DNA of 64,000 nucleotides from Macrostomum lignano (taxonomy: Eukaryota), in NCBI GenBank assembly GCA_002269645.1, contig NIVC01001604.1, forward strand, positions 1 to 64,000. The letters run 5' to 3'. The notes under the pieces were generated by a model. That model ran no database searches, was not told the origin of the DNA, and saw only the letters and a list, made by a program, of their open reading frames with translations. Below, in pieces: positions 1,465-27,064 of this stretch. The first letter of the stretch is position 1. Every line of letters starts with the position of its first letter. The position numbers were made by a program, and so were the translations under genes.

Positions 1465-2251
1465 ATGTCTATTAATTTTGCAGGTGAATCCATTTCTGGC
1501 AACAGCGCTCTTACATCAGCTCAATATCCATCCTTGACAGCGATATATCAACAGCGACGAAAAGATCCCAGAGATCAAACTGAATAAAAACAGACTGAAA
1601 GCCCTAGAGCGCTCCATGCACCAGTTGCAAATAAACATGGAAGATCTCAGGCTTAAAGTAGCTAGGCAGAAGTTTGAAAGTGATAAGCTTTATGTGCCGT
1701 TGTTAAACGCAACTAATGAACTTAGGTCAGAAATAACTTCGGCAGTCTCGCAAATCAACAGCTTAAGATCGACAGTTAATCTTCTGGGAAATTCCACTGA
1801 TAGACGGATGCGTATTCTTGAAGGAGGAGTTTTCACAAACACAGCTAAAGTGAATAATTTAGAAGAGTTCATGAACCAGTCAACAGCGTTGCATGATAGA
1901 ATTAAAGAAAACGTCGCAACCAACACAGGTAAAGTGAGGAATTTAGAAGAGTTCATGACTCAGTCAACAGTGTTGCATGATCGAATCAAAGAAAGACTTG
2001 AAGCATTAAAGAGAAAGGATGTATCACACAGTAGCTATCTAAACGGAATGTATAGCGCTTGGGGTAAAATAATAAGGAGGCTTGATCGTCTGGAGAGAAC
2101 ACTCAATCTTCGTGATATTGCTATTGATGAAGCAGAATCTACTGCTCGTCCGGTCATGTCTATTAATGAAATTATCGAATTTCATGAAAATCAAATCAAA
2201 TCAAAAGAAAACAGATCTTTTTTCAAAACAATAGATCTTCAAACCGGATAG
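1465..2251 (+). CDS. Polinton coiled-coil protein of unknown function with an internal 28-aa duplication
   Basis: ORF 1616..2251 is heptad-rich. The upstream ATG 1465 (ATAAAAGATG, MSINFAGES...) joins through one frameshift near 1535-1580. 84-bp duplication TNTAKVNNLEEFMNQSTALHDRIKE / TNTGKVRNLEEFMTQSTVLHDRIKE. Confidence 0.65.
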
Positions 2252-2283
2252 TTTTGTAATTTTTTTATTTTTTCTAGGGAAAA

Positions 2284-3012
2284 ATGGCCCAACAAAATTC
2301 TCTATACGATCAGTCTCAATACGTTGAACCTAAAATACCGACAGCACCAAACCCAATGGCACCGAATTCGAACACACAAAGCCTGAATGCACCGAATCTG
2401 AATGCACCTCAATATGAGCAACAAAAACTCTACCCCGTCATTACTTGTAACTCTCAGCAGTTTCGATTGGTGGAGATTCAAAAAATGCGAGATGATCTTG
2501 AAAAAAATATTTTCCACAACACAAAGAAAATTAAGCGCTATGACAGCCACTGTAAATTTTTCGACTACAGCAATATGATTCTAGGAACTGTGTCTGTTCT
2601 ATCTGGATCTGCTGCAGCTGTCTCAACGTTGCCAGTCATCACAGCCCCAATCGCAATCCCACTCGGCTCTGTGGGTGCTGCATGTGGACTTATTTCAGCA
2701 ATTACTGGAGCATTAGCGCGAAACAGGCGAAAAAAACTAAAACAGCTACAGGAGAAGCAAGTAAAAGAGAAAGGGGTGCACACTTCAATCATAGGGTACA
2801 TTTCAAGGGCAATCGAGGATAAGTTCATTTCAGAGGATGAGTTCAAAACCATTCAGGATCTTTATGAACAATCAATTCGAATGAACTTGAACATGGTCGG
2901 TACTGATGACATGAGTCAGCTGAGAAATGAACTCGAGAAAGTTCTTCAACATTATGCGGAAAGAAGGACAACGAGAAATTCGGTAAGAAGGACGACGAGA
3001 AATGCACAATGA
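2284..3012 (+). CDS. Conserved Polinton/adintovirus membrane protein, GasderminX-like
   Basis: FRLVEI...LEK helix, Gly/Ala-rich hydrophobic hairpin (LGTVSVLSGSAAAV...LGSVGAACGLISAITG) and SRAIEDKFISEDEF tail; intact and identical in both copies. Family name from recalled pattern, not a search. Confidence 0.65.
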   Translation: MAQQNSLYDQSQYVEPKIPTAPNPMAPNSNTQSLNAPNLNAPQYEQQKLYPVITCNSQQFRLVEIQKMRDDLEKNIFHNTKKIKRYDSHCKFFDYSNMILGTVSVLSGSAAAVSTLPVITAPIAIPLGSVGAACGLISAITGALARNRRKKLKQLQEKQVKEKGVHTSIIGYISRAIEDKFISEDEFKTIQDLYEQSIRMNLNMVGTDDMSQLRNELEKVLQHYAERRTTRNSVRRTTRNAQ

Positions 3013-3016
3013 ACCC

Positions 3017-3417
3017 CTATGAAACACAGGTACGAATAATTTCCTTGTAGGTCTTTCGTGTTTTGGTCATTGCATACAAAACAGTCGTGCACAGCTCACC
3101 GCAAATATCACTGCTAAGACCTTGGAGAATAAAGTCTGAGCGATAAATTTTTTTATTCTTTTTTCCCTTCATATAATTTCTAGCTCTTCTGGTACTGCCG
3201 TCCCATAGCTATCGAAGTAATAACACTTGTGCTTGCGATCGGGATCAATCACCCAGCAAACCCAATGAGATCCTGGCTTATCGGCGGTGTCAAAGTTCAT
3301 GATGCCGCATTCCTTTCTTAGAGGAAAATCAGGCAGAGTGTCCCTCATAAATATTCCTCTAAAGTTTGGGATTTCCAGTTCGTTAGCCAAATCTTCAAGA
3401 AAGTTATTTGTTGTCAT
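3017..3417 (-). pseudogene. Adenain-like cysteine protease, copy 1 (1-bp deletion near 3181)
   Basis: GSHWVC (His), YFDSYG (Asp); the C-terminal QGLSSDICG (Gln/Cys) is out of frame here but intact in copy 2. Confidence 0.9.
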
Positions 3418-3464
3418 TTTTATGTCATTTTTTATGAGGTTTATTAAACTTTCTCTCAAACCTA

Positions 3465-3537
3465 AACCCAATCTCAACCTCCTAAACCTAAACTCCACCT
3501 CCTAAACCCAATATCCACCTCCCAAACCTAACCTCCA
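3465..3537. repeat. Degenerate 20-bp tandem repeat (CCTAAACCCAATCTCAACCT-like) x4 between the PolB stop and adenain start
   Basis: Visible at 3471-3537 and at 18061-18130. Confidence 0.7.
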
Positions 3538-24131: not shown

Positions 24132-24433
24132 GTCGGGAAGGGTTTAACTATTATTATTCTCAGCCCTGACCAAATGCGACAGCTGCATTTGAAAAGTCGA
24201 GACCAAAATCCTCTTCGATCTAGCCTCGGGTAAGGCCAAAATCCTAAAATCCTTTAGCCGAAGCCTCTCTCCCCCCCACGCCCACAGCCCAACCCCCCAC
24301 TTTATCTAAACTCGTTGCTCTTGTTGATTAAACTGGCTTCGGCTAAATCTCTCTCCCCACCGAACAAACCCTCACCCCAGCTGGTTATATTAAACCAGAA
24401 GCATAAACCGCCCAGACCTCTTCACTAACATAT

Positions 24434-24997
24434 ATGCCCTCGCCAGCTACAGAAGAGAAACGGTTAAAAGAACTTGAATCCAAATTGAAGCAAGGAAAAA
24501 GAAAGGCTCAACTACTTCTTCGAGAGAGTAATTTTAAAAACATCACTTTAGAGGACATTTTACAACATTGGAACGGATCGGCGTTGAAGAGAAACACTGA
24601 TTTCTTTAAGTCAGTAGAGGTAAGACTCAAGTCTGTGTACCTTTATCTGTGCATTTGTCTGGTACTTTTTTATTTATAGCATTATTTCATTTCTTACATT
24701 TTAAAGGCTGTGTATCAACTGGAAGAAAAAAAGCGTGTGAAACAAAAAGAGTTGGACAGAACAAGATCAGAGAATATCCCAGATGGACTCGAGTGTGGCG
24801 TTTGCCTCGACTGGCTCGCCGACTCCCGACTGCTAGTCTGCGGCCACTCTTTCTGTCGCAACTGTCTCTATCGCTTATACGATGCGGCGGAAAATAACAT
24901 TATCTGCCCTATGTGTCGGATTGCGACGATTGGACAAGTGGATCAACTGAATAGGAACTATTCGGTTGAAGCAGCGATTCAAAGCTGTAGAAAATGA
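24434..24997 (+). CDS. Spliced RING-finger gene, copy 2 (exons 24434-24619 and 24707-24997)
   Basis: Same GT-AG phase-0 intron, 24620-24706. Confidence 0.8.
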
Positions 24998-25517
24998 GCC
25001 CTTCTCTTTTCCTGCTTTAATAGGAAAATAAAGATGGCAAAACATCTTTTGAACTATGTTCTGCTGGCCTCCAACATAAAGAACATCCTTTTGTTTGTTG
25101 GAGTCAAAACATATACTATTGATAAGTCTTTTTTTACTTTGTGACATAATTACTATAAAAAGCTAGCATGATCTTACTAAAAACCACTACTTAACTACCT
25201 CTGTTATGCTCTGATGGGGTGGGTGTTGATTTCAACGGTGAAGAGTTTGTATTGACGTTGATCATTGAGAGAATGTGAGAAAATGCGTTCCCCTTTTAAG
25301 TATGCTTGCCGAGAATAGAGTGGTATGAAAAAATGCGCGCATGTGTACTCAAAATCTCTTACCCCATTCTGGTAGTATGAGGGCGTGGGCCTCGCGTGCG
25401 TGGGAGAGAGGGGAGTGTATGTGTGTGGGCGCAGCACGCGTGGGGGAGAGAGATTTTCACTTTAACTGAGCCCAGCCGAGGAAGAATTCCGTCTCGAGGG
25501 AAGGCCAGAATGCAAAG

Positions 25518-25663
25518 GATTTCGGCCTCGCGCGAGGCCAAAATGAAAACGATTTCGGCCTCGGGCGAGGCCAGAATGCAAACGATTTTGGCCTCGGGCG
25601 AGGCCAAAATGAAAAGGATTTTGGCCTCGGGCGAGGCCAGAATGAAAACGATTTTGGCCTTTC
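25518..25663. repeat. 33-bp palindromic repeat array, copy 2
   Basis: Same as 10905-11050. Confidence 0.9.
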
Positions 25664-25669
25664 AGTTTT

Positions 25670-25912
25670 TTAACGCAATTGTCTAATGATTTCTGCAAAG
25701 TTATAGTAGCTGTCATAATCTTTTACATAGGTTACTCCATACTTATGAAACCAGTGTCTTTGGAGAGCTAGATTAATATTAGGGACATTGATATCAACGT
25801 CGGGCCAATATTTTCTCATGTACTCGCTGCATTCTAGTTTGCATCGGTACTTGGATTTGTACAATGGATGAGGCTGAGTATAATAGGAACCTGGAGAGAC
25901 AACTGGAAACAT
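25670..25912 (-). CDS. Small orphan 80-aa protein, copy 2
   Basis: Identical to 11057..11299. Confidence 0.55.
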   Translation of the reverse strand: MFPVVSPGSYYTQPHPLYKSKYRCKLECSEYMRKYWPDVDINVPNINLALQRHWFHKYGVTYVKDYDSYYNFAEIIRQLR

Positions 25913-27064
25913 TTTTTATTGAGAATTTAATTTTTTCAAAGGGTAAGGACCCTGGGTTAGGGGATTTAAAGTTTTAGGGATGTGGTAGCACGTTGCAAAT
26001 TGAATGTGGGGAGAAGAATACAGATTATTTTCTGATTGTTTCTGGGTGGATGTTAGTGGATTATGTCAGTGTCAGTGAGTATAACAGGTGTTAGTGGACA
26101 CTTGTTATGCTCTGATTCTGTCAGGGATAATATGGATGGATTTAATACGATTATGTTCGAAGTTTTCGGAGCAAGTGCGACCCCTCCCCTTTTTCATGAT
26201 TCTGTCGGGGATAATATGGATGGATTTAATGGGATTATAGAGGAGGTTTTGTGAGCGAGTGCGACCCCCTTTTTTTCTGATTCTGTCAGGGATAATATGG
26301 ATGGATTTAGGTGGATTATGGAGGAGGTGAAAAATTTTGTCCCAGAAGCCCCCTCATGCCTTCTACTCGACAATAATGCAAATTGTACGTTAATTGCCGA
26401 GTTTTTCCGCTTTAATAATGATTTCAGCTATATTTTTGCAGTTATTAATTTTTAAGACCTAGAAGCATTGAAATATAAACATCAGTTTTTCAACATGCAT
26501 GCTTTCACTCCGAAGTGCATCGCATCGCGGCATGAATGCCAAGATAAAACATCTCTATATATGGTCTGTAAATCCATTCTAACACAAATATTGTTTCTAG
26601 CAATAAAGCATGCTTGAACCTTGGCTTTTGATGCGCTGTTCGAGATCGTGACAATTTTAGCTTCGATATGAAGCTCTGCCAGACATCCGAATTCTACATG
26701 TATGTCCTATATGCATGCATGTTAGATAAAGAACACGAGAGCACCTTTCATTCAACGGACTGGTTAACTTTTGCAGCATAAAACGCGGCCTTTGCGACGC
26801 CCGTTTACTCTCTGTCAGAAAAGAAAATTTAAAACTGCAACTCTATTGAGAGAAGCGGCATTGCATTTTTATCGACGCCATGACCGATTTTAAACTGCGC
26901 ACCTGGCGCCGCGCCGCATTGAGAAGCTGGGAAAGAATTTCAAGACAAAATGCGCCGCAACTGCGTGTGCAGTTCGAATTCCTCTTGCTTCGGCAGCTTT
27001 AAAGGTACTTGTGGGTCACCTGCCGCTTTCCGGGTGTGCAGCTGTAGCGGTGTGCTCGCACCGA

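Follow-up and report, generated by a model that had tools for sequence, protein, structure and literature searches.

Ngaro elements, retrotransposons of the order DIRS with a gene for a tyrosine recombinase (YR), are described as carrying split direct repeats, with A1 ahead of the coding region and B1-A2-B2 behind it (sections consulted of PMC9210276, PMC4157794, PMC3783388, PMC6681497 and PMC13465315). In the literature consulted here, experimental data on the intermediates of such elements come only from DIRS-1, whose complementary DNA (cDNA) is mostly linear and single-stranded and whose integration is believed to rely on a short core common to the element junction and the target (in the parts consulted of PMC7192593). 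Retroviruses can integrate by one end only, and the parts consulted of PMC5041404 report that the other end is then often truncated and that the adjacent host DNA in most cases ends up duplicated, by hundreds to thousands of base pairs. Here we describe a locus of Macrostomum lignano in which a Ngaro-like element at 12092-16176 lies between two copies, A and A', of a 10.5-kb segment of a Polinton/Maverick. The window analysed is the first 64,000 nucleotides of contig NIVC01001604.1 (assembly GCA_002269645.1, forward strand). The element appears to have one intact end and one broken end, and we tentatively favor one-ended integration as the origin of the duplication.

A Ngaro-like element between two copies of a Polinton segment

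Self-BLAST of the window returned a single direct match, 1576-12092 against 16174-26704 (10,533 columns, 99.74% identity, 9 mismatches and 16 gap openings). On the left, exact identity between the copies breaks off at 1578/16176, on the right at 12093/26705, and for this reason the boundaries proposed in a first-pass annotation of this DNA are correct: copy A at 1579-12092, the insert at 12093-16176 (4,084 bp) and copy A' at 16177-26704. The A - element - A' arrangement is a genuine feature of the assembled sequence. The GC content of the insert is ~60%, compared with ~40% in the surrounding DNA, and comparison of identity across the window reveals no second element after A', where unique DNA begins at 26705. 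The same annotation had the right end of the element joining directly into a Polinton gene at 1579. Position 1579 lies inside a stop-free frame (1538-2251) 37 nt before the first ATG of that frame, so that its placement within a gene is uncertain. Across the right junction, the tail of the element is in frame with the downstream Polinton open reading frame (ORF), giving 271 codons from stop to stop at 16043-16858. The insert also begins with GT and finishes with AG behind a pyrimidine tract, which resembles a splice acceptor at the tail; since splicing cannot yield a DNA junction that keeps the "intron", these limits are treated as coincidence.

Did the two copies arise from one Polinton insertion or from two? 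Each holds the same segment up to an apparent Polinton terminus, at 11755 in A and at 26367 in A', followed by 337 bp of probable host flank (11756-12092 and 26368-26704). The terminus was placed by the terminal letters AGTAG on the minus strand, which we take to be the Polinton end motif and on which the length of the flank depends. In addition, the gene for the protein-primed DNA polymerase B (pPolB) contains one in-frame stop common to both copies, near 4900-4902 in A and near 19506-19508 in A'. Based on the common flank and stop, A and A' are read as descendants of a single Polinton insertion, and a second Polinton transposition is rejected, as the first-pass annotation had argued. Because both copies carry the stop, the Polinton was either already defective or reading through it before the duplication.

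The element occupies 12092-16176 on the plus strand, sharing base 12092 with the flank, and reads as A1, ORFs and part of B1, with neither A2 nor B2. A gag-like frame (12131-13381, +) contains a SAP domain (~12377-12478), and its C-terminal part matches the relatives described below (tblastn). The ATG nearest to this frame, at 12360, is out of frame with the SAP domain, a discrepancy that could stem from a sequencing error or a lesion, or mean that a non-standard start is used. The frames for reverse transcriptase (RT) together with RNase H (13486-16017, +) and for the tyrosine recombinase (14985-16088, +; first ATG at 15213) are both uninterrupted, and the latter displays what are presumably the catalytic R-K-H-R-W-Y motifs. 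The order gag, RT/RNase H, YR with overlapping RT and YR frames is that of Ngaro, and no methyltransferase Pfam match (E ≤ 0.01) was obtained in ORF2 downstream of RT/RNase H, the RT homology stopping near residue 546. Gene order and the lack of a methyltransferase match thus agree with the earlier identification of a Ngaro-like YR retroelement situated exactly at the duplication junction. Self-BLAST and a repeat search revealed no repeat pair in 12093-16176 that could represent the split direct repeats A1...B1-A2-B2, and inverted terminal repeats, which in DIRS1-like elements accompany an internal complementary region, were seen neither by self-BLAST nor among the 25 longest of 145 pairs listed. 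The element appears to be a Ngaro-like copy truncated at its 3' end rather than a complete member of the family.

The nearest named RT relative is itself from M. lignano (45% identity). No second copy of the element's family was seen in viral or prokaryote contigs or in the protein collection, and 80 metagenome loci with related RTs (33-53% identity) were therefore used for comparison instead. In viral contigs the RT query yielded no relative that could be confirmed, the search with a 22-nt motif of the element's 3' end was negative in viral and prokaryote contigs alike, and none of nine window proteins was present in the protein collection by exact sequence. In a quick, unrooted tree of 72 of the 80 loci and four proteins, built without a named Ngaro, DIRS1 or PAT reference, the window groups with the proteins P0001-P0003 (SH-aLRT 100), and the nearest locus is more than 2 changes per column away. 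Internal repeats of at least 28 nt occur in 26 of the 80 loci, many being assembly overlaps, and both A and B repeat pairs are found in two (L043 and L078) of these mostly short contigs; the A+ORFs+B unit measures ~3.9-4.5 kb in most of the circular or repeat-bearing contigs. Motif counts were made on 31 loci, namely the 33 with a YR match near the C-terminus minus a near-copy (L002, of L001) and one with a 33-nt tail (L045); 20 of the 31 extend at least 200 nt past the YR stop. The junctions between B and A in L013, L019, L020, L033, L046, L066, L069, L070 and L078 have a common terminal layout, with TTTGG first after the YR stop, next A[AT]TAAA and a stretch rich in G and T, then TTA[AG] and G, and finally a short inverted repeat (from ~+4) and TTTAA. 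This layout may mark the recombinase site together with a promoter element.

At the left junction, the putative start of repeat A1 (12092-12140, +) consists of a G/GT start, an imperfect inverted repeat from +3 and then GTTTAG. The A repeats of the relatives likewise start with G, followed by an inverted repeat 2-6 nt in and then TTTA[AG]. A head rule was phrased as a G/GT start, a stem of at least 6 bp beginning at +2 to +6, and TTTA[AG] just after it; 7 of 11 A heads among the relatives match this rule. Within the insert, matches occur at 3 of 4,015 start positions, which are 12092, 12093 and 12094, and among 5,000 shuffles of the head 17 match. By eye, L019, which was outside the set used for making the rule, has the same head arrangement. 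Since the rule holds in the insert only at 12092-12094, the left junction looks like a true, recombinase-type A1 start with one G shared with the flank, although the choice of this end as the recombinase site draws on distant relatives. Energy folding of the element ends was not significant (z from -1.4 to +0.6).

The right junction appears to be of a different kind. The region 16089-16176 (+) would be the 5' part of repeat B1, with a TTTGG motif 12 nt past the YR stop, and it ends ahead of any poly(A) signal or B-end motif. Among the relatives, 25 of 31 loci have TTTGG or TTGGG no more than 100 nt from the YR stop (shuffled mean 7.7, maximum 15). Within 350 nt of the stop, AATAAA is present in 10 of 20 loci (shuffled mean 3.5, maximum 9) and A[AT]TAAA in 16 of 20 (mean 6.9, maximum 14), the distance of the poly(A) signal from the stop ranging from 31 to 322 nt with a median of 112. 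Eight of the 20 show a tail arrangement in which TTA[AG]G comes 22-55 nt behind A[AT]TAAA (500 shuffles gave a mean of 1.1 and a maximum of 5), and none shows it on the other strand; in one of the eight, L020, the arrangement does not coincide with the true junction. Judged from where contigs start and from the borders of repeats in L020, L046 and L078, the B/A junction falls between TTAA and G. In the insert, A[AT]TAAA is absent from all 4,084 nt, as is any B-end motif, and the sequence ends 88 nt past the stop. The first AATAAA lies 92 nt after the stop and 4 nt inside A' (16181-16186, +, equal to 1583-1588 in A). The hexamer occurs 11 times in A, and 1.15% of A positions fall within 10 nt before one. 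We infer that the element stops within B1, at the position of its poly(A) signal, and is joined to the Polinton by microhomology between that signal and the AATAAA at the start of A'; the element's own AATAAA at the break would be as in the relatives. L019, considered as a relative with a short B lacking AATAAA, turned out to be a permuted contig in which B ends and A begins in the usual way. An 11-nt word common to L019 and the tail of the insert may be chance.

Origin of the duplication

A fundamental question is how an element with one apparently normal and one broken end comes to be flanked by 10.5-kb copies of its surroundings. Ngaro elements are said to replicate according to a model of Goodwin and Poulter. 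We hypothesize that an incomplete Ngaro cDNA integrated by one end only and thereby made the duplication in one event, a proposal that we prefer to its competitors while holding it tentatively. The cDNA, which might speculatively be linear or a broken circle, would carry a regenerated B/A site ahead of A1, and its free end would lie close to the poly(A) site in B1. The tyrosine recombinase of the element would join A1 to the host site at 12092, and host repair would join the free 3' end, via a short match around AATAAA, to Polinton position 1579, situated 10.5 kb upstream on a partner that could, again speculatively, be the sister chromatid. Copying would then proceed through A' into the empty target, and the product, A - element - A', would amount to a 10.5-kb "giant target duplication". 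One true end, one host-made end, a duplication and no element after A' are what one-ended integration predicts, and of the models considered here only this one offers a reason why the break should lie at the poly(A) signal. The proposal builds on the layout, the missing A2 and B2, the AATAAA beside the right junction and the common origin of A and A'. A further claim, put forward with more doubt, is that the locus is real and is the fossil of a Ngaro replication intermediate caught half-way, in which the recombinase inserted a linear cDNA through its single B/A site and host repair captured the end at the poly(A) site at a distance of 10.5 kb.

Several observations weigh against this interpretation. 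The head rule fails for 4 of the 11 heads and the tail rule for 12 of the 20 tails; all motif rules were drawn up after viewing these loci and the insert, the motif-bearing relatives are distant (33-53% RT identity), and the window's own group, P0001-P0003, is represented by protein sequences only. The contiguous identity visible at the right junction is 0 nt, and since no other family copy was seen, the microhomology is putative. Short matches between the insert and A are common (26 shared 10-mers), and microhomology alone therefore does not single out a mechanism. The right-hand 88 nt could also be a short but complete B1. Finally, the evidence is a single locus in a single assembly, in which copy A is rich in errors and for which the best public run contains only 0.79 of the words sampled from 11700-18700.

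The two copies differ by six clean substitutions, at A positions 1971, 4310, 4822, 7522, 9320 and 9322, five of which are C/T transitions (p = 0.018 against a random spectrum); the other mismatches sit at homopolymer borders. The first-pass annotation had reported at least six substitutions, although the positions it quoted as 4823, 7523 and 9321-9323 are one base off and the 16 indels went unmentioned. Its argument that the substitutions speak against a plain read duplication gains from the excess of transitions, but two joined haplotypes stay compatible with them; the substitutions look biological, though they could be allelic. With one homopolymer border taken as one event and another as two, 14 of the 16 indel events are losses in A (p = 0.004), and the indels in A break frames that stay open in A'. 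Counted per fifth of A toward 12092, the indels number 2, 7, 4, 2 and 1. Losses that break frames are the pattern expected from a thinly covered long-read consensus. Across 1-12092 a frame break occurs every ~600-700 nt, in the non-duplicated 1-1578 as well, and breaks become sparser toward 12092, a gradient that looks like a coverage ramp in a long-read consensus. The losses concentrated in A, together with a split ATPase-like gene in 1-1578, therefore point to lower quality of the left part of the window, and copy A looks like a noisy, poorly polished consensus. In public data, 20 of 24 listed runs (9 studies) contain 0.68-0.79 of 731 sampled words of 11700-18700; none of the listed runs contains all of them, and none of those with such words is recorded as RNA. 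One run, labelled as a second organism, contains 0.68 of the words and may be from a relative species or mislabelled.

An alternative hypothesis is that a tandem duplication was followed by a phase switch in the assembly. According to this explanation, which is possible but unlikely, a full-length element inserted at 12092, a microhomology-based tandem duplication then copied A with the first 4.1 kb of the element, and the true allele reads A - truncated element - A' - full element; the assembler would have crossed inside A' to an element-free haplotype and lost the second element. A true left end, a truncated right end and allelic substitutions would all follow from common processes, phasing over a 10.5-kb repeat requires longer reads, and the frame breaks in the left window, 1-1578 included, are typical of thin coverage. 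However, a heterozygous insertion is required in addition to the switch itself, and the break at the inferred poly(A) signal is left to chance or to an A-rich microhomology.

The same coincidence at the poly(A) signal burdens a two-step history in which the structure is real and the recombinase had no part in the duplication. Here a normal insertion at 12092 on one homologue would have been followed by a break or stalled fork in B1 and a microhomology template switch to 1579 of the element-free homologue. A possible variant, which corresponds to the second of three models in the first-pass annotation, has a circle of A plus element re-entering the element-free allele. This history gives the assembled layout exactly, and six substitutions with five transitions fit two alleles, but two events are required while the RT and YR frames remain uninterrupted, and we regard it as unlikely.

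Could the arrangement instead be an artefact, with no duplication in vivo? A chimera or a mis-join through the element would then have linked two haplotypes of one Polinton locus. The preponderance of losses in A, in frames that are open in A', would be in keeping with this, as would the lack of any listed run with all sampled words. Blunt ligation chimeras, on the other hand, are not expected at a defined element end or beside AATAAA, and the assembled junctions fall at what appears to be a biologically defined site on the left and beside AATAAA on the right. A mis-join would furthermore require a pair of insertions separated by 10.5 kb, of which one was truncated beforehand. Taken together, an artefact is improbable.

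The other two models of the first-pass annotation fare worse, and we consider them quite improbable. In one, the recombinase acted at the 3' junction on a site of the sister chromatid; in the other, an unequal crossover (B1 with B2) took place between two complete elements on different homologues, one at 1578/9 and one at 12092/3, leaving an A1-ORFs-B product with two true ends. The insert of 4,084 bp is near the size of the A+ORFs+B unit of the relatives, and precedents exist in the sections consulted: unequal crossing over between roo copies gives such duplications in Drosophila (PMC7003089), Ngaros favor endogenous virophages in Cafeteria (PMC8547959), and YR elements of the CryptonF group recombine with distant target sites (PMC9977147). 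Both models require a true right end, and both are argued against by a right end that appears to fall inside B1, without the AATAAA, G/T-rich stretch and TTA[AG]G that close B in the relatives or the adjoining A start; the Polinton site matches the element end at only 2 of 3 bases, and the junction of recombinase type would be the left one. By eye, L039, L071 and L033 support a permuted reading, in which B would finish with 12093-12140 and the recombinase would have its site at neither end, but this reading fails the head test at 12140/12141 and is scarcely credible.

Polinton genes and other features of the window

Copies A and A' encode pPolB, a retroviral-type integrase, an adenain-like protease, a Protein X-like (pX) product and a phospholipase A2 (PLA2); pPolB with a retroviral-type integrase is the combination expected of Polintons/Mavericks. 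One terminus of the Polinton lies inside the window and the other outside it. In A', the adenain-like protease (17616-18017, -) scores 21.4 bits against Peptidase_C5, for which the cut-off is 21.3. The pPolB gene (18102-21329, -) is one frame apart from the stop near 19506-19508; an ORF at 18102-19355 that was considered as a capsid gene proved to be its C-terminal half, and the pPolB query gave no confirmed relatives in viral contigs. Further genes are the ORF resembling the adenovirus core Protein X (22143-22589, -; Adeno_PX, E = 8e-7), the integrase (22606-23601, -; rve, E = 5e-10) and the PLA2-like ORF (23631-24131, +; Phospholip_A2_4, E = 5e-13). An ORF at 16883-17611 matched only unnamed clusters in the Atlas, with recognition below threshold, and a RING-finger-like frame was read by eye at 24680-24997, close to the Polinton terminus. 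The non-duplicated portion of the same Polinton, at 1-1578, contains the split gene resembling a packaging ATPase (~490-1448, +; Pox_A32, E = 0.003, below the Pfam cut-off), in which Walker A and Walker B are in different frames.

Downstream of A', a glutamine-rich frame at 33748-34578 closes in a C4 zinc finger (Pfam zf-C4, E = 4e-11) and is probably an exon of a host nuclear receptor. A zinc-binding fragment of the Integrase_H2C2 type (42047-42814) adjoins an 18-bp tandem array and resembles the remnant of a long terminal repeat (LTR) retrotransposon. Minisatellites with units of 12-64 bp are dense across 28351-63962; one array, at 30299-32215, is TGTC-based and spans 1.9 kb. The same region contains related palindromic segments at 52917-53063 and 61816-61978.

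Comparison with known systems

Duplications with an element at the junction are known for long interspersed nuclear elements (LINEs), retroviruses and roo, roo cases at Bar and Rdl reportedly being among them, and the layout alone is therefore not new. All comparisons that follow refer to the sections consulted of the papers cited. No account in the open-access text searched mentions a Ngaro or DIRS copy with a kilobase duplication around it, although copy tables in supplements could hold such cases. The Polinton resembles alpha adintoviruses, for which PLA2 and pX domains have been described, in having pPolB, an rve integrase, PLA2 and pX domains and, less surely, a protease and an ATPase-like gene; it differs in that PLA2 and pX are separate ORFs on opposite strands, and the window includes neither capsid genes nor the second terminus (PMC8502044). 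The element shares with Ngaro its gene order, its overlapping RT and YR frames and the lack of a methyltransferase match (PMC9210276, PMC4157794), whereas this copy lacks A2 and B2, appears to have just part of B1 and is flanked by a 10.5-kb duplication. Ngaros are also tied to an endogenous Polinton-related virus in Cafeteria, but those are full elements inside the virus, with no flanking duplication mentioned in the sections consulted (PMC8547959).

Among rearrangements with an element at the junction, the Dualen-4b LINE of Chlamydomonas likewise has a long duplication on its flanks (for Dualen, the median is 900 bp) but uses endonuclease nicks, and CryptonF elements of the same alga are YR elements at rearrangement breakpoints, although they are DNA elements associated with inversions and translocations and have a target motif at each break (PMC9977147). 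Unequal exchange between roo copies at Drosophila white gives the same copy - element - copy layout but both junctions then keep a true element end, a feature not seen here (PMC7003089).

If one-ended integration did occur at this locus, it would provide a natural trace of how Ngaro elements integrate. YR retrotransposons would join the sources of segmental duplication, here of a segment of an endogenous virus, and could produce large tandem duplications within a single insertion event. The predicted signature, in which a long flanking repeat is combined with a true A1 start and a stop at the poly(A) signal of B1, would serve as a genome-wide search pattern in any long-read genome with active Ngaros. 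The likeness is to aberrant integration of HIV-1 and ASLV, in which one normal junction and one truncated, host-made junction accompany a large host duplication (PMC5041404). Those events involve a DDE integrase and arise under drug or mutation in cell culture, whereas the present case would involve a tyrosine recombinase in a natural genome. If reads confirm the locus, a truncated Ngaro-like copy with asymmetric junctions would extend the known range of rearrangements that have an element at the junction.

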